Below, in pieces: positions 3,817 through 59,389 of a stretch of 59,389 nt of DNA. Position 1 is the stretch's first letter, and every line of letters begins with the position of its first letter. This stretch comes from an uncultured archaeon. GTDB taxonomy: Archaea > EX4484-52 > JAADEF01. The position numbers and the translations under genes are program-made. Where the stretch lies: contig CAYOWP010000002.1 of assembly GCA_964407715.1 (NCBI GenBank), positions 53,838 to 113,226 on the forward strand, given 5' to 3'. The notes beneath the pieces were generated by a model. It was not told where the DNA came from and made no database searches. It saw nothing but the letters and a program-made list of their open reading frames with translations.

Positions 3817-4628
3817 GAAGAATCATAATTTTGAAATATGGTGAATTATGGTTAAAATCCAGAAGAACAAAAAAGAGATTTATTAAGTTATTAAGAAGAC
3901 ATCTAACATCACTATTTCCAAAAGATATTTTTTATTTTAAAAGGGATAGAGTAGAGGTTATAACAAACAATTTTGATCTCATGAGATTTAAGTATATTCC
4001 TGGCATTGAGTATGCACATCTATGCTATAAAACATCATCTATTATAGATGACATCATAGCGGTGGTTGAAAAAATTTTAAATGAAGAAAAACTGAAGTTT
4101 GAATCTTTTGCTGTGAGATGCAAGAGAACAGGAAAGCACAATTTTAGAAGCAAAGATATTGAGGAGATAGTAGGCAATTTAATAAAAGAGAAAACACATG
4201 CAAAAGTGGATTTAAATAATCCTGGTTTCACTTTGAAAATAGATATAATAAGCAACGAAACTTATATCTCTCTTTCCTCCCTTGAATGTATTGGTGGATT
4301 ACCATATGCTAGTGAGGGAATATGCAAGGTTAACAATCCAAATAACCTCTTCTTAATCATAGAATTATTAAAAAGAGGGATGTATATTGAAAACCTACCC
4401 GATAAATTGAGAAAATACTTTCCTAAGATAAAGGAAGAGCTTTATCAAAGGCAGGATTTCAAGGTTATAGTTTATGATTATACCTTTGAGGACATAAATG
4501 AGATTCTGAATATCAAAAAAGAAAGAGATTTGGTTTTATTTCCACTCATTGTATATTCTAAAGATGAGATAGAAAGAAAAAATGAAATAATAACAAAAGA
4601 TATTAAAAATCTTTTTAAATCTCTATGA
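3813..4628 (+). CDS. THUMP-domain RNA-binding protein (ThiI/Tan1-like N-terminal architecture, no PP-loop)
   Basis: N-terminal ILKYGELWLKS matches the KxGEIxLKG start of THUMP/ThiI-type proteins. It overlaps the upstream gene by 4 nt (ATGA), consistent with an operon. Confidence 0.45.
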   Translation: MRRIIILKYGELWLKSRRTKKRFIKLLRRHLTSLFPKDIFYFKRDRVEVITNNFDLMRFKYIPGIEYAHLCYKTSSIIDDIIAVVEKILNEEKLKFESFAVRCKRTGKHNFRSKDIEEIVGNLIKEKTHAKVDLNNPGFTLKIDIISNETYISLSSLECIGGLPYASEGICKVNNPNNLFLIIELLKRGMYIENLPDKLRKYFPKIKEELYQRQDFKVIVYDYTFEDINEILNIKKERDLVLFPLIVYSKDEIERKNEIITKDIKNLFKSL

Positions 4629-4644
4629 TGATAGCAATTTATTG

Positions 4645-4937
4645 GGGAAGATGCTAAGAAGCGATGCTGCCTTTGGCAGCAGGAAAGTCCCCTCCCCAAT
4701 CACGGCAACCTCTCGCAAGAGAGGGTCCCGAGAGGGACGGCTCTGCCACAGAAAATAACCTCTAAAAAGCAAGCAATGATTTGATTTGAGCAATGCACTT
4801 TTTAGAGGATGAAATGGCATCCTTGCCGGGGCAACCTCACAATAGAGGGCTTAGACGGATGCTTCACATCCATCACCGCTTATATTTTGAAAGCGGGATG
4901 ACGGATGCACAGAAAGGGGCTTATTAGCATCATCCCC
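4645..4937 (+). ncRNA. rnpB: RNase P RNA (archaeal)
   Basis: GC-rich ~290-nt island containing the universally conserved P4 5' strand AGGAAAGTCC and the CR-IV-like ACAGAAAGGGGCTTA near the 3' end. The 5' end GGGGAAGATGCTAA is complementary to the 3' end TTAGCATCATCCCC (P1). Only short, compositionally odd ORFs occur here. Confidence 0.85.
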
Positions 4938-4945
4938 ATAAAATT

Positions 4946-5446
4946 TTATGATTTAACAAGCAAATAGAAAATACCTATTAATCCTCCTATTACTACAATT
5001 ATAGAGATTATTTCATTTAAACCATAAAAAGATAACTTATCTAAACCAAAATATCCATAGTTTTCAGTCACGATTAATGCAGCAATTACTGATATAAATG
5101 CAAGCCCTATACCTATGTACACTATCCAAGTTTTTTCTTTAAGAATATCTGTAATGTTTACACCAACTAATGCAGAGATTAAACTACCTAAAAGAAAGAT
5201 TAATATGAAAATGCTAAATATCCAGAATACATTTGCCATAAACATTCCTCTTCCAAAGTATGAAATCAAGAAAGCAACAGACAATGCAATAGCACCATTT
5301 ACAGATGCTTCATCACTAATATATTTTCTATTTTGTAACACTCCATATATCAATGCTGTAAATAGCAACCAAGGAAAAAAGAAATCAAACATGTCCAATC
5401 TTTTCATAAACTCAAACAAATCTCCAAAAGTTATCATAATAACCAC
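4946..5446 (-). CDS. integral membrane protein, unknown function
   Basis: 166 aa with four to five hydrophobic helices. No recognisable motifs. Confidence 0.4.
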   Translation of the reverse strand: MVIMITFGDLFEFMKRLDMFDFFFPWLLFTALIYGVLQNRKYISDEASVNGAIALSVAFLISYFGRGMFMANVFWIFSIFILIFLLGSLISALVGVNITDILKEKTWIVYIGIGLAFISVIAALIVTENYGYFGLDKLSFYGLNEIISIIVVIGGLIGIFYLLVKS

Positions 5447-5506
5447 AAATATTTATTATAAAAACAAATATTTATATTTTTTAAATGACATTTGTAAGGG
5501 ATTCAC

Positions 5507-6337
5507 ATGTATGCCGTATTATTTGCTTTTATTTCCGCATTGATATATAGTATTGAAAATGTTCTTCCTAAATATCTTAAAAGGATGGACGCCATAGATA
5601 TTATAATTTTAAGAGAACTGTTAATGCTGATACCTCTTACTCCATTTTTTATAGAAAAGTTTAGCTCTATCTCATTACTTTTAATACTTTTTGGCTTTTT
5701 ATTAGGTTTTATACCTTACTTTGCATTTCTAAAAGCAGTAAAAATGGGCAAGGCAGGTGTGGTTATTGCGCTCTCACAAACACATAACATATTTTCTATA
5801 TTTTTCTCCTTATTGCTTTTTTCTATATTACCTCCTAAAACATATATTATTCCCTTGATGCTTATGCTTCTTGCAATAGGAATTCTTTATTTATCTAAAC
5901 CTTATTCTTTTGATTTTTTACCTATTATGTACTCTTTAATAGCCGCAATACTTTGGGGTTTGCAAGCAGTAATAATTAAACATTATTTTGCTAATATCTC
6001 CCCATGGGATTTAGTTTATTTTACAGAACTTGGCTTATTCCTTACAGCCTTATTTTATGTGATATTCAAGAAGAAGAAAATCACAAAACCTGTCTTTAAA
6101 GGAGAATATATATGCTTGATCATTATGGCTTATGGAGCTTTAATAGCACTTTATTTTTATATTAAATCTCTACAACTTAGTGAACACCCTTCATTACCAT
6201 TGATAATTCTTCCATCATCCACAATTCTTAGCTGTCTATGGGCTTATCTTCTTTTTAAAGAAAAATTAAAACTGCGAGAGATATTTGCAGTTATTTTATC
6301 AATTATAGCAGTAATTATTGCAAGCATAAAGATATAA
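5507..6337 (+). CDS. EamA/DMT-superfamily-like transporter (10 predicted TM helices)
   Basis: 276 aa, hydrophobic throughout, with a two-fold internal repeat of ~5 TM segments typical of drug/metabolite transporters. Confidence 0.45.
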   Translation: MYAVLFAFISALIYSIENVLPKYLKRMDAIDIIILRELLMLIPLTPFFIEKFSSISLLLILFGFLLGFIPYFAFLKAVKMGKAGVVIALSQTHNIFSIFFSLLLFSILPPKTYIIPLMLMLLAIGILYLSKPYSFDFLPIMYSLIAAILWGLQAVIIKHYFANISPWDLVYFTELGLFLTALFYVIFKKKKITKPVFKGEYICLIIMAYGALIALYFYIKSLQLSEHPSLPLIILPSSTILSCLWAYLLFKEKLKLREIFAVILSIIAVIIASIKI

Positions 6338-7546: not shown

Positions 7547-7997
7547 ACATCTTCACCATGAACCACTCCGAAATCTTGTTTTTTGGATATCTTATATAAA
7601 TGCTCAGATTACCTGTATAATTTCCTTCTTTTTTAGCATGAAATTTTATATAGATTGATTTTTTAGAATTACTTTCTAACATAAATTTATCTTTTAGAAT
7701 TAAGAAAGGAGTTGCATTTCCATTAACAAAAAGATAACAAATAACTTTATAAGGCAAAGGATTGTTTATATCTAATATTTTTGTAGTATTTGTTTTGTTT
7801 ACAATCATTCTACCAAAATTTAATACATCTAAATCAACAGCCACACCAATTTTTGTTATGTTTCCAGTCTTATTTGTAACTTCTGCTTTTATAATATAAG
7901 AGGTTACATATCTATACTTTGTGCTTATAAAACTGAACATCGAGAAAAACAAAAATAATAAAAAAATGAAAAGCATAATTAAATTCTCTTTTCTCAA
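7527..7997 (-). CDS. secreted/membrane-anchored protein with sequon-rich ectodomain
   Basis: Signal/anchor MLFIFLLFLFFSMFSFI, several N-x-T/S sequons. Operon partner of the flanking genes. Confidence 0.45.
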   Translation of the reverse strand: MRKENLIMLFIFLLFLFFSMFSFISTKYRYVTSYIIKAEVTNKTGNITKIGVAVDLDVLNFGRMIVNKTNTTKILDINNPLPYKVICYLFVNGNATPFLILKDKFMLESNSKKSIYIKFHAKKEGNYTGNLSIYIRYPKNKISEWFMVKMYEKGYY

Positions 7998-17742: not shown

Positions 17743-17990
17743 GGCATTGTCCAATAATTCTCTATTTGTTAAGCGGAAAAGTATCCTCTTAAAAAACCGC
17801 ATCAGAGCAGCAAACCTTGTAGAGCTAATGCGATCGTAAGAGCAAATTTTTAGTTAACAACTTCTCATCAAAAATTATTGGACAATTTGTTAACAGGAAG
17901 CATAGCCATATTCAAAGGCTTAACTGTTCTCATGCGCTTCTTTAAGATGTTATTTTTCTGCTTAACAATAAGGAATTATTGGACAATGCC
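17743..17990. repeat. dispersed repeat family, locus A: one complete TIR-bounded unit (17743-17886) abutting a second core plus TIR (17887-17990)
   Basis: GGCATTGTCCAATAAT at 17743, internal ATTATTGGACAAT at 17874, ATTATTGGACAATGCC ending 17990. Core sequences (GTTAACAGGAAGCATAGCCATATTCAAAGGCTTAACTGTTCTCATGCGCTTCTTTAAGATG...CTGCTTAAC) match the other loci. Confidence 0.8.
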
Positions 17991-22044: not shown

Positions 22045-22092
22045 TATACATCATAGAAATTTAAAATAATTCAAATTGTTTTTGAAAAACCA

Positions 22093-22227
22093 GCATTGTC
22101 CAATAATATATTTTTGAAAAATTTGGTTAACGGGAAACATAGCCCTATTCAAAGGGTTAACTGCTCTCATGTGCTTCTTTAAGAGGTTATGGTTCCGCTT
22201 AACAAATAGAGAATTATTGGACAATGC
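22093..22227. repeat. dispersed repeat family, locus B: single complete 135-bp unit with 15/16-bp terminal inverted repeats
   Basis: GCATTGTCCAATAAT (22093-22107) ... core GGTTAACGGGAAACATAGCCCTATTCAAAGGGTTAACTGCTCTCATGTGCTTCTTTAAGAGGTTATGGTTCCGCTTAAC ... ATTATTGGACAATGC (22213-22227). It lies in the divergent rtcB/gyrB intergenic region. Confidence 0.8.
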
Positions 22228-22266
22228 CTGAAAACCCTTTTAAAATCCTGTCTCTTTTAATAATCT

Positions 22267-24192
22267 ATGGTTGAAAAAAAGGATTCTAAGACAAGATATA
22301 CTGCTCAAGATATAAAGGTGCTTGAAGGTTTAGAAGCTGTAAGAAAGAGACCTGCAATGTACATAGGGGATACTTCATTTAGAGGATTTCACCATCTCTT
22401 ATGGGAAGTCATTGATAATAGCATAGATGAAGCCTTAGCAGGTTATGCAACAAAGATAGAAGTTATACTTCATAATGATGGTTCAGCAGAGGTTAGAGAT
22501 AATGGTAGGGGAATTCCTGTAGATATTCATCCATCATATAATATCTCTGCCCTTGAATTGGTATTAACAAAACTTCATGCTGGTGGAAAATTTGATACAA
22601 AAGCATATAAGGTTTCTGGAGGTTTGCATGGGGTTGGGATAAGTGTTGTAAATGCTCTTAGCGAGTATTTGGATGTTAAAATAAAAAGAGATGGCAAAAT
22701 ATGGCATATGAGATTTAAAAAAGGAGAAAAAGAGAAGGATTTAGAGATAATTGGAGAAACAAAGGAGATAGGAACTATTATAAGGTTTAAGCCAGATAAA
22801 GATATATTTAAAAATTTGGAGTTTGATTATAAATACATAAAAGGCCGAGCAAAGGAACTTGCATATCTTAATAAAAATCTTCAGATTACATTAGAGGATA
22901 GAAGAACAGGAAAAAAGGAGACTTTTGTATATAATGAAGGAATTGTGCAATATTTGGATGAGTTGGTAAAATATAAACAGAAGGTTATAGAGAGGCCAAT
23001 ATATTTTAGCGAGCGCCAAGAAGGGGCAGAGGTTGAGATAGCTTTTTTATATGTTCTTGAGGATTATAACATAATAAGAGGATATGTAAATAATATTCAT
23101 ACAATTGAAGGAGGCACGCACATAACTGGTTTTCTCCAAGCATTAACAAAGACAATAAAATCTTATATCAATCATCTGAAAATAAAGACAAAATATGAGA
23201 TAGAGGGAGATGATATAAAGGAAGGCTTGGTAGCCATAATTTCTTTAAAACTTCCTCAACCAGAGTTTGAAGGACAAACTAAGACAAAGTTGGGAAGTAG
23301 AGAAGGAAGAACCATAGTTTATAATGCAACATCAAAGCATTTGGAGGAATACTTTGATAGGCATAATGATGATTTGAAAAAGATCATTGAGAGAGTATTG
23401 AAGGCTGCTGAGGCAAGAATAGCAGCAAAAAAGGCAAGGGAACTTGTTAAAAGAAAATCTGCATTAGAATCGTTTGATCTTCCAGGTAAGCTCTCTGATT
23501 GTTCAACAAAAGATAAAGAAAAGGCAGAATTGTTCATTGTTGAGGGAGAGAGCGCAGGTGGTTCTGCAAAATTGGCAAGAGATAGAAATTTTCAAGCAGT
23601 TTTACCTTTAAAGGGTAAAATAATAAATGTAGAGAAAAACACTATGTTAAAAGTACTGAAGAATGAGGAAATAAGGACATTGATTTCAGCAATAGGTACC
23701 GGGATAGGTGAAAACTTTGATATTAATAAACTTCGATATGGAAAGATAATAATAATGACAGATGCTGATGTTGATGGGGCACATATAAGAACTTTAATAT
23801 TAACATTTTTCTATAGATATCTACCAAAGCTAATAGAAGAGGGGAGAGTATATTTGGCATTACCTCCTTTATATAAAATAAAAACATCAAACAACGAGAT
23901 TTATTATGTTTATAGCGATAAGGAAAAGGAGGAGCTAATTAAAAGATTAGAGAAGAGCAATAAAAAGATTTCAGAGGTTCAGAGATATAAGGGTCTTGGA
24001 GAAATGAATCCAGAGCAATTGTGGGAAACCACAATGGATCCAAAAAGAAGGAAACTTAAAAGAGTGGAGATTGAGGATGCCATAGAAGCTGAAAAGATGT
24101 TTACAATATTAATGGGAGAAAAGGTTGAGCCAAGGAAAGAGTTTATCTTAGAAAATGCGCCATTGCTCAAAATAGAAGAATTGGATATTTAA
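22267..24192 (+). CDS. gyrB: DNA gyrase subunit B
   Basis: GHKL ATPase blocks (GLHGVGISVVNALS), Toprim (LFIVEGESAGGSA), C-terminal YKGLGEMNPEQLWETTMDP. No gyrA follows in this window. Confidence 0.9.
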   Translation: MVEKKDSKTRYTAQDIKVLEGLEAVRKRPAMYIGDTSFRGFHHLLWEVIDNSIDEALAGYATKIEVILHNDGSAEVRDNGRGIPVDIHPSYNISALELVLTKLHAGGKFDTKAYKVSGGLHGVGISVVNALSEYLDVKIKRDGKIWHMRFKKGEKEKDLEIIGETKEIGTIIRFKPDKDIFKNLEFDYKYIKGRAKELAYLNKNLQITLEDRRTGKKETFVYNEGIVQYLDELVKYKQKVIERPIYFSERQEGAEVEIAFLYVLEDYNIIRGYVNNIHTIEGGTHITGFLQALTKTIKSYINHLKIKTKYEIEGDDIKEGLVAIISLKLPQPEFEGQTKTKLGSREGRTIVYNATSKHLEEYFDRHNDDLKKIIERVLKAAEARIAAKKARELVKRKSALESFDLPGKLSDCSTKDKEKAELFIVEGESAGGSAKLARDRNFQAVLPLKGKIINVEKNTMLKVLKNEEIRTLISAIGTGIGENFDINKLRYGKIIIMTDADVDGAHIRTLILTFFYRYLPKLIEEGRVYLALPPLYKIKTSNNEIYYVYSDKEKEELIKRLEKSNKKISEVQRYKGLGEMNPEQLWETTMDPKRRKLKRVEIEDAIEAEKMFTILMGEKVEPRKEFILENAPLLKIEELDI

Positions 24193-29183: not shown

Positions 29184-29199
29184 TTCAACAATTATACAC

Positions 29200-29446
29200 T
29201 TCTTTAAAAGGCTACTTTTTAACAAGGAATTATACCCCATCAATGAGCAGCAGTAGAGCAGCTAACCTTAAAGATGACATGCTACAAAACCTATAGTAAT
29301 AGCGATTTCTTCCAGTTAACAAAATCATTTAAAATGGTTAACAGGAAGCATAGCCTTATTCAAAGGGTTAAATCGCTATAAGTGCTATTTGCGTGTTAAG
29401 TTTCCGCTTAACAAAATTTTGTTAATAAGGGATTATTGGACAACGC
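29200..29446. repeat. dispersed repeat family, locus C: extended copy ending in a TIR variant (ATTATTGGACAACGCC)
   Basis: 29213-29443 is the near-exact reverse complement of part of locus F (48250-48470). It includes the core GGTTAACAGGAAGCATAGCCTTATTCAAAGGGTTAAATCGCTATAAGTGCTATTTGCGTGTTAAGTTTCCGCTTAAC. Confidence 0.75.
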
Positions 29447-29502
29447 CAGAACACAAGAATTAAACGCAAAAAATATATCCTATAATGAGAAAAATATAAT
29501 AT

Positions 29503-33288: not shown

Positions 33289-33297
33289 GAGGTTTTT

Positions 33298-33378
33298 TTG
33301 TTAACTGGAAACATAACCTTTCAAAGAAGCGCATGAGAGCAGTTAACCCTTTGAATAGGGCTATGCTTTTCCTTTAAC
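33298..33378. repeat. dispersed repeat family, locus D: core-only copy in reverse orientation, no TIRs
   Basis: Reverse complement reads GGTTAAAGGAAAAGCATAGCCCTATTCAAAGGGTTAACTGCTCTCATGCGCTTCTTTGAAAGGTTATGTTTCCAGTTAACAA. Its two ~19-nt termini (GTTAACTGGAAACATAACC) form a perfect inverted repeat. Confidence 0.75.
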
Positions 33379-33431
33379 CAAATCTCTCAATTCTAAAATT
33401 ATATATGCCAGAAAACCTCATTTAATATATT

Positions 33432-37759: not shown

Positions 37760-37827
37760 TGTTTCTGTATATGTACAATATATAGTATCGCTATATATTG
37801 GCATATCTTGAAATAGGAGGGAGAAAT

Positions 37828-39921
37828 ATGTTCAAAAAAATAAGAAAAAGAGATGGAACAATTGTTGATTTCGATGCTGAGAAAATCACAAATGCTATTG
37901 CAAAAGCAGGAGAAGCAACAGGAGAATTTGATAGGCGCATTGCTAAGAGATTAACATTAAAAGTGCTAAATTTAGCACAACAAGTTATTAAAGATGACAT
38001 TCCAAGCGTGGAGGAAATTCAAGATATTGTTGAAGAGGTCTTGTTGAATTCTCCTTATAAAAAGACGGCGAAGGCATATATAATTTATAGAGATGAGCAT
38101 GCTAAAATAAGGGAACTTGTTTCTAAGGCAAATTCAGAATTAGTTGATCAATATCTCAATAATCTTGATTGGCAAGTTAATGAAAATAGCAACATGTCTT
38201 TTTCATTACAAGGGTTAAACAATTATATTTCCTCTGAAATAAGCAAGATTTATTGGTTGAATAGAATTTATCCAAGAGAGATAAGGAGAGCACATATAAA
38301 TGGAGATTTTCATATCCATGATTTAGGTATGCTATCTGTATATTGTGTAGGATGGGATTTGATGGATCTTCTAATAGAAGGTTTTAAAGGAGCATCTGGG
38401 AAGATTGAGAGTAAACCAGCAAAACATTTCCGCAGCGCTCTTGGACAGGTGGTTAATTTCTTTTATACATTGCAAGGAGAAGCAGCGGGAGCTCAAGCAT
38501 TTTCAAATTTTGACACTTTCTTAGCTCCGTTTATAAGATATGATGGCTTATCATATAAAGAAGTAAAGCAGGCAATTCAGGAATTTATTTTTAATGTAAA
38601 TGTCCCTACACGTGTTGGTTTCCAAACACCTTTCACAAACATAACATTAGATCTTGCTCCTCCTAAACATTTAGCAAATCAACAGGTTATAATAGGAGGA
38701 AAATTGCAAGATGAAGTGTATGGAGATTTTCAACACGAAATAGATATGTTTAATCGAGCCTTTCTTGAGGTTATGATGGAAGGGGATGCAAAAGGAAGGA
38801 TATTCACCTTCCCTATCCCTACATATAACATAACAAAGGATTTTGATTGGGACAATCCTAATTTTGATTTACTTTGGAAGGTTACATCAAAGTATGGTAT
38901 TCCATACTTCTCAAATTTCATTAATTCTGATATGGATCCAGCGGATGTGAGATCAATGTGCTGTAGATTAAGATTAGATAATAGAGAGCTTAGAAGAAAG
39001 GGAGGAGGTTTATTTGGGGCAAATCCATTAACTGGGAGTATTGGTGTAGTAACAATAAATATGCCAAGAATAGGATATCTCTCTAAGGATGAAACTGAAT
39101 TTTTAGAGAGATTGGAAGCATTAATGATATTAGCAAAAAACAGTTTAGAGATTAAAAGGAAGGTATTGGAAAAATTTACAGATAAAGGGTTATATCCTTA
39201 CACAAGATATTATTTGAGAAACATTAAACAAAGCCTAGGAGAATACTGGAAAAATCACTTCTCTACAATTGGTTTGGTAGGGATGAACGAGGCATGTCTA
39301 AATCTTTTAGGAGTGACTATAGGGGATAAAGAAGGCAGAAAGTTTGCAATTAAAGTTTTAGATTTTATGAGAGAAAAGCTTATTGAGTTTCAAGAGGAGA
39401 CAGGGAATAATTATAATTTGGAAGCAACACCAGCTGAAAGTACAAGTTATAGATTGGCAATGATTGATAAAAGAAAATATCCTGATATTATATGCGCAAA
39501 TGAGGAAGGGTATAGAAAAGGTGCTGAACCATTTTACACAAATTCTACGCAATTACCAGTGAATTTTACTGATGATATTTTTGAGGCATTGGATTTACAA
39601 GATGAATTGCAGATAAGGTATACAGGAGGCACAGTATTCCATATCTATATAGGAGAAAAGATAGATAACCCGAATATAATAAAATTATTAGTAAAGAAAA
39701 TATGTGAAAACTATCGATTGCCATATTTTACAATAACACCTACATTTAGCATATGTCCATTTCATGGATATATTGCTGGAGAACATCATCTCTGCCCTGT
39801 TTGTGGCTCAGAATGCGAGGTATATTCCCGTATAGTGGGCTATTTCAGACCCGTAAAGCAATGGAATAAAGGTAAAAGAGAAGAATTTAAGATGAGAAGT
39901 AGTTTTAAGGTGAGTGTGTGA
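37828..39921 (+). CDS. nrdD: anaerobic ribonucleoside-triphosphate reductase (class III)
   Basis: N-terminal ATP-cone (MFKKIRKRDGTIVDFDAEKITNAI), large barrel domain, C-terminal Zn ribbon CPVCG and glycyl-radical motif (RIVGYF). Start placed at the internal Met preceding the ATP-cone. Confidence 0.85.
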   Translation: MFKKIRKRDGTIVDFDAEKITNAIAKAGEATGEFDRRIAKRLTLKVLNLAQQVIKDDIPSVEEIQDIVEEVLLNSPYKKTAKAYIIYRDEHAKIRELVSKANSELVDQYLNNLDWQVNENSNMSFSLQGLNNYISSEISKIYWLNRIYPREIRRAHINGDFHIHDLGMLSVYCVGWDLMDLLIEGFKGASGKIESKPAKHFRSALGQVVNFFYTLQGEAAGAQAFSNFDTFLAPFIRYDGLSYKEVKQAIQEFIFNVNVPTRVGFQTPFTNITLDLAPPKHLANQQVIIGGKLQDEVYGDFQHEIDMFNRAFLEVMMEGDAKGRIFTFPIPTYNITKDFDWDNPNFDLLWKVTSKYGIPYFSNFINSDMDPADVRSMCCRLRLDNRELRRKGGGLFGANPLTGSIGVVTINMPRIGYLSKDETEFLERLEALMILAKNSLEIKRKVLEKFTDKGLYPYTRYYLRNIKQSLGEYWKNHFSTIGLVGMNEACLNLLGVTIGDKEGRKFAIKVLDFMREKLIEFQEETGNNYNLEATPAESTSYRLAMIDKRKYPDIICANEEGYRKGAEPFYTNSTQLPVNFTDDIFEALDLQDELQIRYTGGTVFHIYIGEKIDNPNIIKLLVKKICENYRLPYFTITPTFSICPFHGYIAGEHHLCPVCGSECEVYSRIVGYFRPVKQWNKGKREEFKMRSSFKVSV

Positions 39922-40607
39922 GAATTGGAGGACTTCAAAAGGTTTCTTTTATTGATTATCCTGGTAAGATTAGTGCTATTATTTTTACACAAGGATGTAA
40001 TTTTAGATGTCCTTATTGTCATAATCCAGAATTGGTTGATTCATCTTTATTTGATGAGCCTTTGGATATAGAAGAAATCTTCTCTTTTTTAAAATCAAGA
40101 AAGGGAAAAATAGATGGAGTAGTAATCACAGGAGGAGAGCCAACAATACAACCTGATCTCAAGGAATTTATAAAGGAAATAAAGCAAATGGGATTCTTCG
40201 TGAAATTAGATACCAATGGAACAAATCCAGATGTTGTCCGTGAGTTATTAAGAGATAGAATGATAGATTATATTGCAATGGATATAAAAGCGCCTTTAGA
40301 AAAATACAAAGATGTTGTTAGAGTTAATCTTAACATTGATGATATAAAAGAAAGCATCTCTTTAATTATGTCTTCCTCTATTGATTATGAATTTAGAACA
40401 ACTATATGCAAAAAACTACTTGATAAAGATGATATCATCAGAATTGCAAAGCAGATTAAAGGAGCTAAACTTTATGTTTTACAAAAATTTGTAAAATCTA
40501 AGACATTAGATCCTTTTTTTGATGATGAAATTCCTTATTCTGATGAGGAATTATTAGAACTAAAAAAAGAGATTGAGAGATATGTTAACAAGTGTGCTAT
40601 TCGTTGA
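39918..40607 (+). CDS. nrdG: anaerobic RNR activating enzyme (radical SAM)
   Basis: CNFRCPYCHN (CX3CX2C) near the N-terminus. Overlaps nrdD by 4 nt. Confidence 0.8.
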   Translation: MRIGGLQKVSFIDYPGKISAIIFTQGCNFRCPYCHNPELVDSSLFDEPLDIEEIFSFLKSRKGKIDGVVITGGEPTIQPDLKEFIKEIKQMGFFVKLDTNGTNPDVVRELLRDRMIDYIAMDIKAPLEKYKDVVRVNLNIDDIKESISLIMSSSIDYEFRTTICKKLLDKDDIIRIAKQIKGAKLYVLQKFVKSKTLDPFFDDEIPYSDEELLELKKEIERYVNKCAIR

Positions 40608-43906: not shown

Positions 43907-44398
43907 TCACCTTTTTATAAATCTTGGAATTTGAAGAATTGGCGGTAAAGATAGAACTTCTGTTAAATACATGAATTTTGGAATTCCTCTTTTTATTATG
44001 GCATTGAGTATCTCTACTTCTTTTCCTTTTAAATTCCCCTCTTTTTTCCAATTTTTTTCCAAATCCCTTGCTTCTTTTTCATCTTTTGTCGCATACAAAA
44101 TATCGCCATTCATGCTCAATAATGCAACTTCATTATTATTTTGAATATATCTTATCATAAAAGAATATTTTATATTTAACGCAGATATCTTAATTTCTTT
44201 TTCCAATAATGAATTAATTATCTTTGTTTCTTTAACATCTTCTATTTTTGGATTGTGCTCTATTTTTACTTTTCCAATTATAGGTTTTTTAACCTCTCCT
44301 TTTATCTCCTTAATTGTTATTCCTACTATAGACATATTTTCACCCTTATAGAAAAATTTCATTATTAAATATTTAAAAGTTTTACTATAATGTAGCAT
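43907..44398 (-). CDS. hypothetical protein
   Basis: 163-aa ORF. The likely start is the internal MSIVGITIKE. No motifs. Confidence 0.3.
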   Translation of the reverse strand: MLHYSKTFKYLIMKFFYKGENMSIVGITIKEIKGEVKKPIIGKVKIEHNPKIEDVKETKIINSLLEKEIKISALNIKYSFMIRYIQNNNEVALLSMNGDILYATKDEKEARDLEKNWKKEGNLKGKEVEILNAIIKRGIPKFMYLTEVLSLPPILQIPRFIKR

Positions 44399-44900
44399 GC
44401 TAACTTTAAAGAGAGGTTAACTGCTTCAATGTGCTTCATTAAGAGCATATTTTTCCCTTAACCAATTTTTATTTAAAAAATTTTGGTTAAGGGAAAGCAT
44501 AACCCCTTCTCGAGGCATATCACAGCAGGTAATCTCTCCGAGCGTTTAGGAAGCAGCTAACCTTTCTTCAGGTTAGCATGCTGTAATATGGTCGCGAATA
44601 TGATATCATCCCGTTAACCATATTATTCAAAATTAAATAAAATTTGGTTAAGGGGAACTATGCCTTACATCTATACCTTCATTGCAGCAGTTAACCTGAA
44701 GAAAGGTTACCTGCTCAAATGTGTTTTTGAGATGGTATGTTTCCCCTTAACCATTTTTATTCAAAATAATTGGTTAACGAGCAGAAATCGCTTTTCTAAA
44801 GCATACTGTAGCATGATAATCTTCTTTTTAGGTTATCTGCTTCTAATGTGTTTTCTTGGTTATGTGTATTTTCCTTTAACAAAATTATTTAAAATGCGAG
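44395..44900. repeat. dispersed repeat family, locus E: ~500-bp tandem array of at least five degenerate core copies, no TIRs
   Basis: Successive units beginning GGTTAACTGCTTCAATGTGCTTCATTAAGAG..., TTGGTTAAGGGAAAGCATAACCCC..., AGCAGCTAACCTTTCTTCAGGTTAGCATGCTGTAATATGG...CCGTTAACC, TTGGTTAAGGGGAACTATGCC...GTTTCCCCTTAACC, TTGGTTAACGAGCAGAAATCGC...TTTCCTTTAAC. All are recognisably related to the cores at loci B, C and F. Confidence 0.7.
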
Positions 44901-44956
44901 AAAATTGCTTTTTAAGTTAAAAATTATATTAATCTTCTTCGATATAAATAATATTT

Positions 44957-45634
44957 ATGGTTGAGAAGATACCTACAGGGATTCCTGGTCTGGATGAATT
45001 GCTATATGGAGGAATACCAAAAGGTAGCGTAGTCTTGGTTTCTGGAGTGGCGGGATCAGGTAAAACTACTTTTCTATCTCAATTCTGTTGGTATGGGCTT
45101 GTAAGAGGAGAAAGATGTCTTTTCATAACCTTAGAAGAGATGCCGGAAGAGATAAAAGATGACATGTTACAATATGGATGGGATTTCAAAAGATACGAGT
45201 CAGAAGGAACATTTAGAATTGAATATTTTGATCCATTTGAGTTAAGTGATATGAGCCACAGATTAAATGATCTCATTGAAGTTAATAAGTTTGATAGGGT
45301 TGTAATAGATTCTTTATCTTTATTAGGAATGTATATAAAAGATGAGTTTGAAATAAGAAAAAAACTCTTTAAAATAATTCAGAATATAAAGAAATCAGGA
45401 GCAACTGCTTTACTTTCTGGTGAAATTCCTGAACATGAACCAAACAAGCTATCAAGATATGGTGTAGAGGAATTTGTTGTTGATGGAGTAATCGTGCTAT
45501 ATTATCATAGGATGAGTGATGGCAATTTTGGGAATATAGAGATTAGAAAGATGAGAAGGACAAAACATGCTCACGGAACATTTCCAACTTTTATAACCAA
45601 CAAAGGATACGAGGTGAGTACAGAAAAAATATAA
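44957..45634 (+). CDS. single-domain KaiC/RecA-superfamily ATPase (ArlH/FlaH-like)
   Basis: GIPGLDELLYGGIPKGSVVLVSGVAGSGKTTF (KaiC-type Walker A context), Walker B VVIDSLS. 225 aa. Confidence 0.65.
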   Translation: MVEKIPTGIPGLDELLYGGIPKGSVVLVSGVAGSGKTTFLSQFCWYGLVRGERCLFITLEEMPEEIKDDMLQYGWDFKRYESEGTFRIEYFDPFELSDMSHRLNDLIEVNKFDRVVIDSLSLLGMYIKDEFEIRKKLFKIIQNIKKSGATALLSGEIPEHEPNKLSRYGVEEFVVDGVIVLYYHRMSDGNFGNIEIRKMRRTKHAHGTFPTFITNKGYEVSTEKI

Positions 45635-45728
45635 AAGTATAGTGATATATAAAATATATTGAGACACCATAAAGTATATATAATACTAAGGAACAATAAT
45701 TAATTATAATATTTTGGAGGGTTATAAT

Positions 45729-46250
45729 ATGAGCGAGAAAAAAAGTATGGAGGACATGCTAAAAGAATTAGAAAAACTTGCAGGAGAAATAGAAACAAAA
45801 AAGAAAACTTCTTCTAAAAGAAAAAAATCTTCTTCAAAACAGAAAGAGATAAAAGATGAGAAAATAAAGGAAGATTTAAATAAAGTAAAGGAGATAAAGA
45901 AATCTTTGGAAGTTTTGGAAAAAGAGGTGTTTGTCAAGATAAATGATCCTGAGAAGATAATTAATAATCTTTTAGAGAGCAAAAAGAGGGTAAAAGACAT
46001 CACTACAAGTCTAATGGCTTTGATTAAGCTTAGCAAATTAAGAGAGGAAATCATTGAAAGATTAAATAAAGATATTTCAGCTTTAAGAGAATTATCAAAG
46101 GAGATAGAGCATGAACTCAATTTAGATGAATATACCAAAACATTAGGAAAAGAGATTGGTAAAATAGATGAGGACATCATTACTCAATACATCGATACTA
46201 TTGAAGAAGACATAGAGGAGATAAGGAGATACATGGGAATAGCAAAATGA
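45729..46250 (+). CDS. acidic/basic coiled-coil protein
   Basis: ~175 aa, K/E-rich heptad pattern, no TM. Start taken at MSEKKSMEDM. Confidence 0.4.
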   Translation: MSEKKSMEDMLKELEKLAGEIETKKKTSSKRKKSSSKQKEIKDEKIKEDLNKVKEIKKSLEVLEKEVFVKINDPEKIINNLLESKKRVKDITTSLMALIKLSKLREEIIERLNKDISALRELSKEIEHELNLDEYTKTLGKEIGKIDEDIITQYIDTIEEDIEEIRRYMGIAK

Positions 46251-46294
46251 TACTTTTATGATAAGAGATATTTGTTAAAGCAGAGGTGATTTAG

Positions 46295-46783
46295 ATGAAA
46301 TTAAAAATAAAGGCTCAGAGTGCCACAGAATATTTGATGACATATGGTTGGGCGCTTTTAGCTATTGCAATTGTTGGTGGATTATTGTATATGTATGTGT
46401 TTAGCAACAAGGAGTGTACAGAGGTAACAAAAGGATGGTCCCAGCAAGGTGTTGTAATCGTGCCAAATGAATACCAAGTGATGACGGATGGAAACATTAG
46501 TATGATAGTAAAAAACAATTTAGATAAGACAGTATATATAACCAAAATAGAAGTTGATGGTAATGTATGTGATCTTTCAACAACTAAGATTACTTTGGCA
46601 CCAGGAGAGCAAATTCAAATCTCTACAACAGGTACATCATGTGATAGTGGAACTGTAAAGGCAAATCCAAGAAATGAAAATGCATGCGAGCAGATAAATA
46701 TCAAATTCACATATGATGTTGAAGGAGGTTTATCAAATAAGATTTCTAGTGGTAGCATTATAGCAAGAATTGTGGCACCTTAA
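46295..46783 (+). CDS. type IV pilin-like protein with archaeal class III signal peptide (DUF361-like)
   Basis: N-terminus MKLKIKA|QSATEYLMTYGWALLAIAIVGGLLY: basic residues, Ala at -1, Gln at +1, Glu at +5, then a ~20-aa hydrophobic helix. A Cys-containing beta-rich globular domain follows. Confidence 0.55.
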   Translation: MKLKIKAQSATEYLMTYGWALLAIAIVGGLLYMYVFSNKECTEVTKGWSQQGVVIVPNEYQVMTDGNISMIVKNNLDKTVYITKIEVDGNVCDLSTTKITLAPGEQIQISTTGTSCDSGTVKANPRNENACEQINIKFTYDVEGGLSNKISSGSIIARIVAP

Positions 46784-46785
46784 AA

Positions 46786-47766
46786 TTAGAGTATTTTTTC
46801 TATTATTGAGCACAAATTCCTTGCCTTTTTTTCTTTTCTTATTAGATATGTGCTCTCTAATCTAATACCAAATTTTCCTTTAAAGTATACTGCAGGTTCA
46901 AGCGCGACAATCATGTTCTTTTTAAGTATTTCATTCTCATTAAAATTTGGTGATTCATGAATCTCTATCCCTACACCATGTCCAAGCATATGATATCTAC
47001 TAAAAATTCCTTTTTTATATTTCCTCAGACAATCCTCTGCAATCTTTTTAAGCTCCTGAACATCCATTCCTTCTTTTGCATAATCTTCTAAAATACCTAA
47101 GGTATAGTACACATCTTCAAATACCTCTCTATATATATTTTTTCTTGGAATTGTTATTGTAATGTCTGAGCAATAACCATTAAATTGGGAGCCAAAATCT
47201 ATCATAACTATATCCTTAGCTATGTATTTTTTTGGTATATGATGTATTGATGATGTATTTTTCCCATAACTTACAATAGTAGGAAAGGCGGCTCTTGCAT
47301 TATAGTCTATTATTCCTTTCTCAATTTCTTTGGCTAAATCTGTCTCGTTTATATCAAAGATTCTTTTAGAGATTATTTTTTCATAAACTCTCTCATTTAT
47401 TTTGCATGCTTTTTTTATATTTTCAATCTCATCTTTTGTTTTTACTTCTCTTTTTTTATCAATTTCTTTGCTTATATCTATTATCCTAAATTTCTTTCTT
47501 ATTTGTTTTATTTGAGCATGGTAGAGGTCATTTAAATATACACCCACCTTAACTTTATTTTTTATTATATCATTTACATCTTTAATTTCTCTATCTGAGA
47601 TTATCCAAAACCGTACATCATCTTTATTTCTCTCTTTATCTTTTATTAAATAATATGCAATTTTTTGATATGGAAAAACAATTAAAGTGTCTATTTTATT
47701 TTTAGAGAATATCTCTCTTATTATCTCTATCTTGCTTGATTTTAATATTTTACTTAGATTGGACAT
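46786..47766 (-). CDS. M24-family metallopeptidase (Xaa-Pro aminopeptidase/prolidase-like)
   Basis: Pita-bread fold metal ligands: DIVMIDFGSQFNGYCSDITIT (Asp-Asp), HGVGIEIHE (His, Glu), and a C-terminal Glu. 326 aa. Confidence 0.65.
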   Translation of the reverse strand: MSNLSKILKSSKIEIIREIFSKNKIDTLIVFPYQKIAYYLIKDKERNKDDVRFWIISDREIKDVNDIIKNKVKVGVYLNDLYHAQIKQIRKKFRIIDISKEIDKKREVKTKDEIENIKKACKINERVYEKIISKRIFDINETDLAKEIEKGIIDYNARAAFPTIVSYGKNTSSIHHIPKKYIAKDIVMIDFGSQFNGYCSDITITIPRKNIYREVFEDVYYTLGILEDYAKEGMDVQELKKIAEDCLRKYKKGIFSRYHMLGHGVGIEIHESPNFNENEILKKNMIVALEPAVYFKGKFGIRLESTYLIRKEKKARNLCSIIEKIL

Positions 47767-47819: not shown

Positions 47820-48128
47820 TTATTTTTTCTTTTTCTTCTTTTTCTTCTTCTCTATTTTTTCTATTCCTATCTTTTTCACATTAGCCTTATAAATCTCGTC
47901 ACCCATCCAAGATGGCCTGTTTGCAGGTGCTTTAACCTTTGTTCTAGAACCTTCATATATATGTATTTTGTTTGTTCCTCTTTCCCTTAATCTTATTTTC
48001 TTATATCCTCTGTTTGCAGCCTTTAATGCTGCTTGTCTTGGTGTCCTTCCAGTGAATACACCGATTTCATTTCCTTTGTCATCTAGCAATACAAAATACC
48101 TTTTTCCTTTTTTACCTGCCATTTTCAC
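47820..48128 (-). CDS. chromosomal protein MC1 family, with C-terminal poly-lysine tail
   Basis: RYFVLLDDKGNEIGVFTGRTPRQAALKAANRGYKKIRLRERGTNKIHIYEG...NRPSWMGDEI is near-colinear with the MC1 consensus (NFVLRDE-GNE-GVFTGKQPRQAALKAANRG...RLRERGTKK). It ends in 11 consecutive Lys. Confidence 0.8.
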   Translation of the reverse strand: MKMAGKKGKRYFVLLDDKGNEIGVFTGRTPRQAALKAANRGYKKIRLRERGTNKIHIYEGSRTKVKAPANRPSWMGDEIYKANVKKIGIEKIEKKKKKKKKK

Positions 48129-48224: not shown

Positions 48225-48595
48225 GGCATTGTCCAATAATCCTCTATTAACAAAATTTTGTTAAGCGGAAACTTAACACGCAAATAGCACTTATAGCACT
48301 TAACCCTTTGAATAGGGCTATGCTTCTCGTTAACCATTTTAAATGATTTTGTTAATGGGAAGAAATCGCTATTACTACAGGTTTTGTAGCATGTTAACCT
48401 CATCTTTAAGGTTAGCTGCTTTACTGCTGCTCATTGACTGGGTATAATTCCTTGTTAAAAAGTAGCCTCTTAAAGAAGCGCATCAGAGCAGCAAATCTTA
48501 TAGAGCTAATGCAATTCAAAGGGTTAAACTGCTCTCATGCGCTTCTTTAAGAGGTTATATTTCCGCTTAACAATAGAGAATTATTGGACAATGCC
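48225..48595. repeat. dispersed repeat family, locus F: 371-bp composite bounded by perfect 16-bp TIRs, holding a reverse-orientation core, a long spacer shared with locus C, and a forward core
   Basis: GGCATTGTCCAATAAT at 48225 and ATTATTGGACAATGCC ending 48595. Internal 26-nt inverted repeat CCTCTTAAAGAAGCGCATCAGAGCAG / CTGCTCTCATGCGCTTCTTTAAGAGG. Confidence 0.8.
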
Positions 48596-49690: not shown

Positions 49691-50857
49691 ATGAATTTTA
49701 AAATCACAGAAAATTATAAGATTGGAAAAATTGTAACATTTATTCCAAACAAAGCATTGCCTGTGTATAATTGGTTTTATTATAAGGAGGGATTTTCAAG
49801 ACAATTTGTGGAATATGCATATAAGAGATTAAATATAAGTGAAGATGATGTGATTCTTGATCCTTTTGTTGGATGTGGAACCTCTGCATTATATGCAAAA
49901 GAGATGGGAAATCTCTTTTATGGATTAGATGTTAATGATGTTGCCATATTAGCTGCGAATGTTAAAACTTATGATTATGATATTTCTATTCTTAAGAACT
50001 ATGCTAAGAAAATCTTAAAGAAGCCAACAGAACATGAGATAAAAGAGGCTGAGAAAGAGATTGAGAGGATAACTTTATCTATAGTAAAGAAAGCATATCC
50101 TTCACCTGTATTAAAGCAAATTTTGGCATATAAGCATAAGATTCTAAATAAGATAGAGGAGAAAAAATATCAGGAGTTTTTTATCTTAGGATTGATGAAA
50201 ACATCAACAATAACCACATACGCAAGAAAGGAAGGAGGGAGTATAAAGATAGATAAAAAAAGGAAATTTCCTCCTGTTAAAGTTGCATTTAAAAATATCA
50301 TCAAAAAAATGCTCTCAGATTTGCAAAAAATTAATTTTAAAATTGATGAAAACAAAATCATTATAATAAAGGGAGATGCAAGGGAGCTGAGCAGATATGT
50401 TAAGGATAAGATAGATGTTATTATCACATCTCCTCCATATTTAAATAAAATAGAATACACTAATGTCTATGCCTTAGAACAATATCTTTTTATTTCAAAA
50501 AGAATCTCAAGACCTGCTGTGAGGTCTTATATAGGAGAGATAATTGAGGAAGAAGAAGATGTGTTTTATGGTAAGTATCCTATGAACAATATAAGTAGAG
50601 CATATTTTCGTGATATGTATCAGGTTATCAAAGAAATCAAAAAAATTTCCTCTAATAAGATGAGAGGTGCTCTTGTGATAGGTGATGGATGCTTTCCTAA
50701 TGGAGTTGTAAAAAGCGATATTTTAATAAGTGAGCTTCTTGAAAGAGAAGGATTTGCTGTTGAGGAAATAGAAAGGGTTAATGTAAGGTGGTGTATGAGA
50801 AATCGCATATCAAAAGTTGGGCCAATGCATGAAAGCATAGTTTGGTTTAGAAAATAA
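49691..50857 (+). CDS. DNA (N6-adenine or N4-cytosine) methyltransferase, apparently orphan
   Basis: Motif I DPFVGCGTSALYA (FxGxG) at the N-terminus and motif IV DVIITSPPYLNKIEY (SPPY) ~200 aa later, an alpha-like motif order. No endonuclease-like ORF adjacent. Confidence 0.6.
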   Translation: MNFKITENYKIGKIVTFIPNKALPVYNWFYYKEGFSRQFVEYAYKRLNISEDDVILDPFVGCGTSALYAKEMGNLFYGLDVNDVAILAANVKTYDYDISILKNYAKKILKKPTEHEIKEAEKEIERITLSIVKKAYPSPVLKQILAYKHKILNKIEEKKYQEFFILGLMKTSTITTYARKEGGSIKIDKKRKFPPVKVAFKNIIKKMLSDLQKINFKIDENKIIIIKGDARELSRYVKDKIDVIITSPPYLNKIEYTNVYALEQYLFISKRISRPAVRSYIGEIIEEEEDVFYGKYPMNNISRAYFRDMYQVIKEIKKISSNKMRGALVIGDGCFPNGVVKSDILISELLEREGFAVEEIERVNVRWCMRNRISKVGPMHESIVWFRK

Positions 50858-57716: not shown

Positions 57717-59389
57717 ATGAGATATCTATTGTTCATCGCGATGCTTTTACTCATACTTTTCACATTACCTTTTTCCTATGCAGCCACCTCTCTCAACTCC
57801 TGCACCACAATCTCATCTCCAGGAGTTTACTATCTCACCTCTGACATCACTGACTCAAGCAGTACTTGCTTTACTATCTCCTCTTCTGACGTAATTTTGG
57901 ATTGCCAAGGACATGTGATTGATGGTACTCAAGCCTCTGGTAGTTATGGCATATATGCCAGTGGCTCCTTAAGCAACATCACCATAAGAAACTGCAAAAT
58001 CCAAGAGTTTTATTATGGAATTTACTTCTATAATGGTGTTCATGATAGCAAGATAGAGAATGTTGTGAGTAATAGCAACAATGGATATGGCATCCGGCTT
58101 AATGGCGGTTCCTCCAACACATTAACAAACATCACTACTGAGAATAACAATTGGGGTGGCATCCTTCTTGATTCCTCATCCTCCAACACCTTAACAAACA
58201 TCACTGCTAAGAATAATCACGACGACGGTATTCATCTCTATTCCTCTTCTTCCAACACCTTAACAAACATCACTGCCAATAATAACGGTGAGGATGGCAT
58301 TTATCTCTCTTCCTCTTCCTCCAACATAATAGCAAATTCCACAATAAAATACAATGCTCAATATGGTATTTATCTTACTTATTCAGATAACAACAACATC
58401 ACATCCACAACAATCACATTCAATTCTCAAGGTATTTACTTTAATGGCAACTCAGACAACAACATCTTCAAAAACAATACCATACTCAAAAACAAATTTA
58501 ATGATATAAGAATAACATCCAGTGATAATAACAATCTCTTTTATAACAATCTATTATCTACAGCTAAATATAAAATCTCAGATGAATCATCAACAACAAA
58601 ATGGAACTATACGAATATAGGAAATCACTGGCTAGATTATGATGCTGAACATGAAGGATGCTATGATACTAACAATGACAATATATGTGATGATCCTTAT
58701 GCTATCAATGATAAATATGATTACTATCCAATCTATACAGGAACACCTCAAAAAACATTTACTTGCTCATCATGTAGCGAGTGTACATCTATAATACAAA
58801 ACAATGCAACTCCCAATGATATAGTGCAATTAACTGTTGATATTATTGATTCCACCACATCTAAATGCATATATTTTGATCCTTATACATATCCAGAAAT
58901 AATATTTGATTGTCAAAACCATTTAATAGATGGAGATGACAATGTTGATTATGGAATTTATATTGATTATACTCAAGGCATTACAATCAAAAACTGTCAA
59001 TTAACAGATTGGGATTCTGCAAATATCTACTTAACCAATGTTAAATATAATACCTTAAAGAATATAATCACTAAAAGTAGTCCAGATCGTGGCATCTATC
59101 TCCGTTCCTCTTCCTTCAACACATTAACAAACATCACTGCTAAGAATAACAATTGGGATGGCATTTTTCTCTATTCCTCTTCCAACTATAACACATTAAC
59201 CAACATCACTGCCAATAATAATAACTGTGGCATCTGGCTTCATTCCTCTTCCAACTATAACACATTAACCAACATCACTGCCAATAATAACAATCGGGAT
59301 GGCATCTATCTCCTTTCCTCTTCCTCCAACACATTAACAAACATCACTGCCAATAGTAACTCTCGTTATGGCATCTATCTTGATTCCTC
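57717..59389 (+). CDS. secreted right-handed parallel beta-helix repeat protein (adhesin/NosD-pectate-lyase-like), 3'-truncated by window end
   Basis: ATG at 57717. Signal peptide MRYLLFIAMLLLILFTLPFSYA, then repeated 22-aa units (SSNTLTNITANNN-xDGIYL-SSS) typical of PbH1 beta-helix repeats. The frame stays open to the end of the window. Confidence 0.65.
   Translation, partial: MRYLLFIAMLLLILFTLPFSYAATSLNSCTTISSPGVYYLTSDITDSSSTCFTISSSDVILDCQGHVIDGTQASGSYGIYASGSLSNITIRNCKIQEFYYGIYFYNGVHDSKIENVVSNSNNGYGIRLNGGSSNTLTNITTENNNWGGILLDSSSSNTLTNITAKNNHDDGIHLYSSSSNTLTNITANNNGEDGIYLSSSSSNIIANSTIKYNAQYGIYLTYSDNNNITSTTITFNSQGIYFNGNSDNNIFKNNTILKNKFNDIRITSSDNNNLFYNNLLSTAKYKISDESSTTKWNYTNIGNHWLDYDAEHEGCYDTNNDNICDDPYAINDKYDYYPIYTGTPQKTFTCSSCSECTSIIQNNATPNDIVQLTVDIIDSTTSKCIYFDPYTYPEIIFDCQNHLIDGDDNVDYGIYIDYTQGITIKNCQLTDWDSANIYLTNVKYNTLKNIITKSSPDRGIYLRSSSFNTLTNITAKNNNWDGIFLYSSSNYNTLTNITANNNNCGIWLHSSSNYNTLTNITANNNNRDGIYLLSSSSNTLTNITANSNSRYGIYLDS
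58108..58330 (+). repeat. intragenic ~66-nt tandem DNA repeats (block 1) encoding beta-helix rungs
   Basis: Units CCTCCAACAC(A/C)TTAACAAACATCACTGC(T/C)AA(G/T)AATAA...GGCAT...ATCTC..TTCCTCTTC repeated ~3.5 times. Confidence 0.7.
59095..59389 (+). repeat. intragenic ~66-69-nt tandem DNA repeats (block 2), continuing past the window end
   Basis: At least 4.5 copies of TCCTCTTCC(AACTAT)AACACATTAAC(A/C)AACATCACTGCCAATAATAA...GGCATCT..CT. Confidence 0.7.

Follow-up and report, generated by a model that had tools for sequence, protein, structure and literature searches.

Locus E of a DPANN archaeal chromosome is probably a REPIN/BIME-like cluster of palindromic repeat units

Gene context and anatomy of locus E

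The window analyzed here, a 59,389-nucleotide stretch from an uncultured archaeon, is chromosomal DNA with a G+C content of about 31% and encodes tRNAs as well as an archaeal RNase P RNA. Within it, locus E lies in an intergenic space of 621 bp (44336-44956) between two divergent genes. The left neighbor encodes a 142-aa hypothetical protein on the minus strand with its start at 44335 (gene call from the ENA record), and the right neighbor is a KaiC-like ATPase gene on the plus strand (44957-45634; Pfam KaiC, E=3e-59). Repeats occupy about 44387-44900 of this space, ~500 bases, in agreement with the initial annotation, which had described a divergent promoter region filled with repeats. The unique 50-55 bp on either side of the cluster contain TATA-like and Shine-Dalgarno-like sequences for both genes. 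Direct reading of the letters suggested that the left flank (44336-44386, minus strand), which is not repeat, is likely the promoter and Shine-Dalgarno sequence (GGTGA) of the hypothetical gene. The right flank (44901-44956, plus strand), also outside the repeats, has a TATA-like AAATTATATTAA about 30-40 nt 5' of the KaiC-like start codon (44957) and is likely the core promoter of that gene.

The locus DNA was identical in the ENA assembly (21,191/21,191 bases) and in the Logan assembly of run SRR7051321 (4,319/4,319 bases), indicating that locus E is not an assembly artefact. The closest relatives of the KaiC-like ATPase (80-87% identity) were found only in MAGs labelled Nanobdellati (DPANN), and more distant ones in MAGs labelled Aenigmarchaeota or Nanohaloarchaeota. 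For a 93%-identical KaiC homologue, the contigs break inside the gene. The sole difference observed for P0241 was the start-codon residue. DPANN archaea have small, compact genomes, in which non-coding arrays of 0.3-0.9 kb between housekeeping genes stand out.

Locus E had been described as a head-to-tail array of decayed units. The repeats are real, but they are not arranged head to tail. Tandem Repeats Finder gave no report within 44063-45624, and the repeat finder run on locus E returned mostly inverted pairs (29 inverted vs. 7 short direct families). The locus aligns with its own reverse complement, with symmetry centers near 44474, 44555, 44617, and 44762. Two of its motifs are strongly concentrated here: the B-box sequence TTTCCCTTAACC (≤1 mismatch) occurs six times in the window vs. 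0.39 expected, four of them inside locus E, and GGTTAACTGCT occurs 10 times vs. 0.56 expected, with half of the copies inside the locus (5/10).

An HMM built from an alignment of ten repeat arms of the window gave seven matches in locus E, of which five were strong matches of arm subtype T1 (E 8e-8 to 1e-13), one was weak and one marginal. The strong T1 arms lie at 44411-66 (+), 44482-537 (-), 44643-99 (-), 44701-54 (+), and 44830-84 (+), in the order + - - + +; the weak match lies at 44569-622 (+, E=0.01) and the marginal one, an A-box fragment, at 44550-66 (E=0.8). The five core units counted earlier correspond to these five T1 arms, whereas the natural unit, which was recognized more clearly in the sister arrays described below, is an imperfect palindrome of ~128 nt; with a unit HMM, locus E resolves into about 3.5 copies in mixed orientation. 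One unit consists of a T1 arm and a diverged, inverted T2 arm, each ~55-64 nt long. Its first half runs from the A box GGTTAGCTGCT through ~26 nt to the B box CTTCCCnTTAACCAT and is followed by an AT-rich loop of ~17 nt; the inverted half then comprises the B' box ATGGTTAACGGGAgGAAATCGCT, ~15 nt, the A2' box GCAGCATGCTAACC, and a 9-nt junction. The ~17-nt loop and the 9-nt junction are also the two linker types found among related arrays, and the alternating degrees of similarity noted between units reflect the two arm subtypes. Folded back on itself, such a unit would form a long, imperfect hairpin. Overall, the arm and unit HMMs of the family match locus E at E 1e-13 to 3e-19.

The cluster opens on its left edge with a truncated T2 arm end containing the A2' box GTAGCATGCTAAC (44387-44404, plus strand), which was recognized through the direct repeat D3 (44387-44427 vs. 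44803-44843, 73%). Unit U1 (44406-44537) follows, a near-symmetric palindrome in which two T1 arms (44411-44466, +, and, inverted, 44482-44537, -) enclose an AT-rich loop (44467-44481). It coincides with the inverted repeat I8, its arms match the arm HMM at E=2e-13 and 8e-13, and the unit HMM scores it at 49.6 and 46.3 bits in the two orientations. Next to it, a 29-nt accessory module with an extra A box (44538-44566, minus strand; reverse complement GGTTAGCTGCTTCCTAAACGCTCGGAGA) was found by sequence reading. Unit U2 (44569-44699) lies on the minus strand (unit HMM 48.1 bits vs. 36.7 on the plus strand); in it, an AT loop (44623-44642) separates a T2 arm (44569-44622; arm HMM E=0.01) from a T1 arm (44643-44699; E=8e-11). 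Unit U3 (44701-44830) is on the plus strand (66.8 bits vs. 30.9 on the minus strand), and its T1 arm (44701-44754; E=1e-13) is joined through an AT loop to a T2 arm (44771-44822). The right edge is formed by the half unit U4 (44830-44900, plus strand), a T1 arm (44830-44884; E=8e-8) with an AT-rich tail.

Relatives of the units in the window, in sister arrays, and at orthologous loci

The arms of locus E also make up the interiors of MITEs that lie elsewhere in the window and are bounded by TIRs, which bears out the kinship proposed in the initial annotation. A 138-bp copy (22092-22229) contains one hairpin core between two TIRs and is flanked by the 9-bp target duplication TGAAAAACC / TGAAAACCC; a 248-bp copy (17743-17990) contains two cores and is flanked by AAGGTTAGC / AAGGATAGC. 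The composite 371-bp copy (48225-48595) holds about five alternating arms between its TIRs, with the perfect 9-bp target duplication TAGATTTTT, and its interior aligns with 44736-44882 of locus E at 69%. MITEs are defined as short non-coding elements bounded by terminal inverted repeats and a target-site duplication. Because they have TIRs and 9-bp target duplications, these three dispersed copies are genuine MITEs, whose cargo ranges from one arm to about five. In addition, a copy with only the right-hand TIR (29194-29447) is inverted relative to the 371-bp copy and 83-94% identical to it, and a single hairpin core without TIRs is located at 33296-33382.

The TIR of the MITE family is the 16-bp GGCATTGTCCAATAAT, and the TIR GCATTGTCCAATAAT of the dispersed copies does not occur in locus E. 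Allowing up to three mismatches, no match to the family TIR was found there, as had been noted before, and no flanking direct repeat was detected. Locus E is the cargo module of the MITE alone, multiplied.

A scan of JGI metagenome contigs with the MITE-end pattern matched a single metagenome, Ga0190367, with 14 stretches. On the Ga0190367 contigs, TIR-less arrays of 2-6 units occupy ten or more other intergenic sites and reach up to ~880 bp. The most regular array (L017 7246-7914) has five head-to-tail units with a period of 126-130 and a TRF score of 365, and a trailing partial unit extends to about 8009. This array begins like the left edge of locus E, with a truncated T2 arm end, closes like the U4 edge, with a B box and then TTAAAAT..GC, and contains the 29-nt accessory module at 7630-7658 and 7916-7942. 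Six units are present in L026 3758-4578, and further arrays lie at L016 3909-4667, L020 1981-2660, L027 318-980, L024 9-854, L025 3231-3710, L022 5335-5727, L014 145-485, and L023 3775-3980. A lone TIR at L024 3440 is followed by nucleotidyltransferase/HEPN-type genes, as judged by eye from the translations, and by no transposase. All sister arrays are intergenic, some between divergent and others between convergent genes, and their flanking genes are unrelated housekeeping genes (PolB, ProRS, L15e, L44e, proteasome alpha, tRNase Z, and PGM).

Proteins of the array contigs and of the window come from the same four sources, and orthologues on the array contigs were found for 0 of 28 window proteins. 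The array contigs may therefore be other parts of the window's own genome and not a second genome, in which case all copies found would belong to one genome. No plasmid or phage sequence in the collections searched by BLAST matched locus E. A scan of viral contigs yielded 18 single matches to the 16-nt TIR, none of which was accompanied by arms (0/18), and the unit pattern had no match in viral contigs.

Comparison with orthologous regions of related genomes, one of the checks proposed in the initial annotation, showed no copy of the family at any orthologous locus retrieved from the nearest MAGs. At the KaiC-side loci compared (L002-L004 and L048-L051; KaiC 80-87% amino-acid identity), the downstream operon of two small genes, M24 peptidase, MC1, and CDC48 is conserved, and the upstream neighbor varies between genomes. 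At the DUF1512-side locus L053 (DUF1512 75% amino-acid identity), the hypothetical-DUF1512-DCD operon is preceded by IleRS at a distance of 104 bp. As both gene blocks are conserved and have different neighbors in relatives, locus E lies exactly at a lineage-specific junction, a synteny breakpoint, between them. Such repeats at synteny breakpoints may also be a cause of assembly breaks.

Box conservation, divergence, and the readings weighed

Across the units, the majority base reaches 0.82-0.88 in the four boxes vs. 0.61-0.64 in the spacers, a contrast that is partly inflated since unit detection and alignment went through those boxes. Conserved columns are clustered (26 in runs of ≥5 vs. 7.6 expected; permutation p=0.002). 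The term "decayed" used earlier for the units thus describes their diverged spacers, but not the four boxes. In alignment A1 the boxes start with GGTTA[A/G]C and have no GTAG/CGTC head. The idea of a restriction site was rejected: GTTAAC is invariant in the boxes, yet it is not depleted outside the repeats (10 observed, 8.3 expected). The four conserved boxes may be what a putative mobilizing or binding protein recognizes, and their conservation could equally reflect a function for the host.

A host function is the main rival explanation and is compatible with a selfish origin. By analogy with IHF/gyrase-binding BIMEs or centromere-like repeat arrays, the array would be a set of protein-binding sites used by the host: the four boxes, each containing GGTTA[A/G]C, would act like operators that a DNA-binding or nucleoid protein recognizes, and the cluster would shape local topology or the expression of the divergent genes. 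Conserved boxes, spacers near saturation, and the lack of covariation fit recognition of sequence rather than of structure; the arrays persist in a compact genome; and this genome encodes GyrB and MC1. Moreover, BIMEs and REPs are reported to bind several proteins (PMC2817692), and in E. coli BIMEs serve as binding sites for proteins. On the other hand, the genes next to the arrays are unrelated and may be divergent or convergent, the array is missing at orthologous positions in relatives, the same boxes travel inside MITEs, and the binding protein itself is hypothetical. On balance, we consider host use unlikely to be the main explanation. If the arrays are used by the host, they mark a chromosome-organizing system.

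Two bolder readings, which together appear improbable, are that the arrays are domesticated, genome-wide platforms for sequence-specific protein binding in a reduced DPANN genome, or that they are the footprint of a hairpin-recognizing single-strand transposition system as yet undescribed in archaea. As platforms, the arrays would keep four GGTTA[A/G]C-centered boxes per 128 bp by selection while the rest drifts, and they might serve as topological barriers, gyrase/MC1 loading sites, or anchoring sites.

The initial annotation also offered a clustered small-RNA locus. If so, transcription starting in the AT-rich loop would give one hairpin RNA of ~100 nt per unit, with a regulatory or guide role. 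The locus as a single strand folds back far better than shuffles on either strand (z=-10.1 as DNA and -10.9 as RNA), and all 37 units of alignment A1, on which the RNA tests were performed, fold individually as one long hairpin of -22 to -55 kcal/mol. Sequence reading further showed oligo-T runs in the AT-rich loops and a resemblance of these loops to TATA elements of archaea. On the unit plus strand, G:T mismatches outnumber A:C mismatches (123 vs. 82), in cells that are not independent, several of them being fixed consensus differences between T1 and T2.

Structured RNA families are recognized by compensatory changes that keep base pairs, or by a match to a curated covariance model. RNAalifold returned an empty consensus structure for the 37 units, and when the long-hairpin structure of the individual folds was imposed, pairing was 78.9% vs. 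78.4% in shuffles, with covariation of 0.165 vs. 0.158 (101/500 shuffles reached the observed score). As pairing is the same as in shuffles, it follows from the conserved palindromic consensus and not from compensation. At the gathering threshold, Rfam matched only tRNAs and RNase P, elsewhere in the window; in E-value mode, locus E and the L017 array gave only sub-threshold miRNA-like hairpin matches. Both strands fold equally well, unit orientation is mixed in locus E, and across arrays the units point either way relative to the neighboring genes. The small-RNA proposal thus found no support in these tests, and we regard it as distinctly improbable.

A recent local tandem duplication, in which slippage or unequal crossing-over multiplied one element that is now decaying neutrally, would agree with the regular period of sister arrays (126-130 bp) and with a few adjacent units that are 82-84% identical (e.g. 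L026 4136/4293 and L017 7372/7659). However, the pairwise comparison of units, likewise suggested in the initial annotation, showed that the three full units of locus E have a mutual identity of 0.61, no closer than to units of other arrays, where their best partners reach 0.70-0.76, and their orientations differ. Over all arrays, mean unit identity is 0.65 within arrays vs. 0.63 between arrays, and the best partner of most units is a unit of another array, indicating that the cluster is not a recent local duplication. Neutral decay would also not be expected to spare four boxes. We consider this explanation highly improbable.

The remaining readings (replication origin, CRISPR-like array, decayed gene, or assembly artefact) are scarcely credible, although AT-rich stretches flanked by inverted repeats in a long non-coding region might suggest them. 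In archaeal origins, ORB/mini-ORB dyads flank an unwinding element near orc1/cdc6 at one or few sites per genome, while CRISPR arrays consist of near-identical direct repeats of 23-50 bp with unique, constant-length spacers, usually with cas genes nearby. Here, ten or more similar arrays exist, the boxes contain no ORB-like dyad, the sole Orc1/Cdc6-like candidate (AAA_22 + winged helix, 714-1685) is 43 kb away, and the GC skew has no turning point at locus E. A CRISPR array can be dismissed, as it was in the initial annotation: identity between the repeats, which are inverted, is ~61-65%, the segments between boxes are diverged versions of a consensus and not unique spacers of constant length, and no cas domains were present among the Pfam matches of the window ORFs. 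A decayed gene is contradicted by the lack of any consistently open frame and by unit lengths that are not multiples of 3 but take every residue modulo 3, and the 86-aa ORF at 44660-44920 had no Pfam match; an artefact is contradicted by the identical sequence in three assemblies.

Locus E is therefore to be annotated neither as a gene nor as a CRISPR array or RNA locus; most likely, it is selfish DNA. More specifically, it is probably a lineage-specific REPIN/BIME-like cluster of non-coding, non-autonomous palindromic repeat units. Among the three origins considered in the initial annotation, an insertion hotspot or a recombination-generated array fits best, with many sister arrays and none at orthologous loci. 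We infer that the TIR-less units were mobile, and that repeated insertion or recombination placed them side by side to build locus E. The site of assembly would be the lineage-specific rearrangement junction between two core promoters, where insertions may have been tolerated. On the REPIN/BIME analogy, a hairpin doublet would spread, decay to singlets, and pile up in ordered or disordered clusters, its conserved parts being recognized by a dedicated enzyme or by host proteins (PMC3116915, PMC2817692). A candidate insertion target of the units would be TTAA within ATGGTTAACCAT. If the units are mobile, some enzyme must recognize them. No transposase or RAYT-like gene was found by Pfam among the about 54 window ORFs or among 19 array-flanking ORFs (about 200 kb covered), and for the TIR-less units there was no empty site or target duplication marking their ends. 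A further point against this reading is that no unit pair exceeds 84% identity, so there is no sign of recent activity.

Comparison with known repeat systems

Clustered palindromes of the REPIN/BIME type are well studied in bacteria, and the literature searched contained no description of such clusters for DPANN archaea. REPs are imperfect palindromes of 20-40 bp with a conserved GTAG or CGTC head, and REP/BIME/REPIN systems are associated with a RAYT gene (an IS200/IS605-like Y1 transposase), typically flanked by the repeats. An archaeal case is the MJRE of Methanocaldococcus jannaschii (Suyama et al. 2005, cited in PMC2229807). MJRE copies are reportedly extragenic palindromes about 100 bp long that differ considerably from one another, and their host genome is AT-rich. 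MJRE and the locus E family are alike in being extragenic palindromic repeats of archaea; some MJRE copies are reported to lie in frame inside genes, unlike the units studied here.

The dispersed relatives of locus E resemble archaeal and bacterial MITEs (PMC2229807, PMC11602168): they are small non-coding elements with TIRs of 16 bp and target duplications of 9 bp. Locus E itself has internal sequence in common with these dispersed MITEs, but it has neither TIRs nor a target duplication and is therefore not a MITE insertion.

REPINs are hairpins of ~70-110 nt made of two inverted REPs and form tandem clusters over 700 bp (PMC3116915). As in the REPINs of Pseudomonas fluorescens SBW25, two inverted arms here make an imperfect hairpin of ~100 nt that is extragenic and non-coding. 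REPINs likewise occur singly or in ordered tandem clusters spanning several hundred bp, together with singlets and decayed copies, and in disordered clusters that are thought to arise from insertion beside existing copies (PMC3116915). In the family studied here, two inverted copies form one long hairpin and tandem clusters exist, and the units would, like REPINs, be replicative. There are also clear differences. The host is a DPANN archaeon instead of a bacterium, arm length is ~55-64 nt compared with ~20-40 nt for REPs, a GTAG/CGTC head is absent, and the about 200 kb covered contained no RAYT gene. In addition, the arms fall into two distinct conserved subtypes (T1 and T2), and the units also occur inside TIR-bounded MITEs.

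BIMEs are described as regularly spaced REPs in alternating orientation (PMC2817692). With enterobacterial BIMEs, the family shares clustered palindromes in alternating orientation, two unit types, alternating linkers, and optional linker modules comparable to the 29-nt accessory module of locus E. It differs from BIMEs in its longer units, in the absence of any sequence relationship, and in its archaeal host. Binding by IHF, gyrase, or Pol I, as in BIMEs, would be hypothetical here. Extragenic clusters with alternating orientation and linkers are thus present, and the short unit of 20-40 bp with a GTAG/CGTC head is not.

Locus E therefore lacks the sequence-level defining features of both REP/BIMEs and MITEs, and works like a REP/BIME. 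By this analogy, the family appears to behave like REPINs and BIMEs, being extragenic and occurring as single cores and as clusters with alternating arm orientation; additionally, it is cargo between the TIRs of a MITE family whose members generate 9-bp target duplications.

Conserved gene block and other genes of the window

The block at window 44957–47766 opens with the gene for the KaiC-like ATPase and continues with those for two small hypothetical proteins and an M24 peptidase; MC1 follows at 47820–48128. The gene order from the KaiC-like ATPase to MC1 is kept across related DPANN MAGs (orthologous loci L048–L051), whereas everything upstream of the KaiC-like ATPase varies between them; in L048, this gene is preceded by a 754-bp stretch without a called gene. 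The window also encodes DNA gyrase B (gyrB, 22267–24192), an anaerobic ribonucleotide reductase together with the corresponding activase (37798–40607) and an N6/N4 DNA methylase (49691–50857). Moreover, a 323-aa protein on the forward strand (714–1685) shows AAA_22/AAA_16 and C-terminal winged-helix matches. It could be a divergent Orc1/Cdc6, and it had no sequence match among PDB chains.

MITE copies and the right end of the window

MITE-family copies with the 16-bp TIR GGCATTGTCCAATAAT were located at window 17743–17990, 22092–22229, 29194–29447 (right-hand TIR only) and 48225–48595. The family is characterised by 9-bp target duplications, read at the three other copies, and carries one to about five hairpin arms per copy as cargo. 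One copy lies immediately upstream of gyrB, and the MC1 gene is likewise adjoined by a copy. No partner transposase for the family was seen in the window. On L024, a metagenome contig with a TIR-less array, a lone MITE TIR at 3440 adjoins three successive small-gene pairs (3611–6328), which by-eye judgement of the translations likened to nucleotidyltransferases with HEPN-like partners, a putative toxin–antitoxin-like arrangement.

At the right end of the window, 69-bp (23-codon) tandem repeats are present in 3–4 copies each at 58047–58384 and 59049–59389. The ENA assembly of this DNA stops just short of them, at window position ~57755, and L026, another array-bearing contig, carries a region 86–87% identical to them.

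Hairpin core and optional module

A single hairpin core of the repeat family occupies window 33296–33382 within a 143-bp intergenic gap, and both TIRs and an evident target duplication are absent from it. GTTAAC is invariant within the repeat boxes, and no depletion of this hexamer was found elsewhere in the window (10 observed vs. 8.3 expected). Furthermore, a 29-nt optional module, GGTTAGCTGCTTyCaAAaCGCTyTCAnrA, which duplicates the A box, was found repeatedly between units of different arrays, namely locus E (window 44538–44566, reverse strand) and contig L017 (7630–7658 and 7916–7942). In this recurrence the module much resembles the linker motifs of BIMEs.
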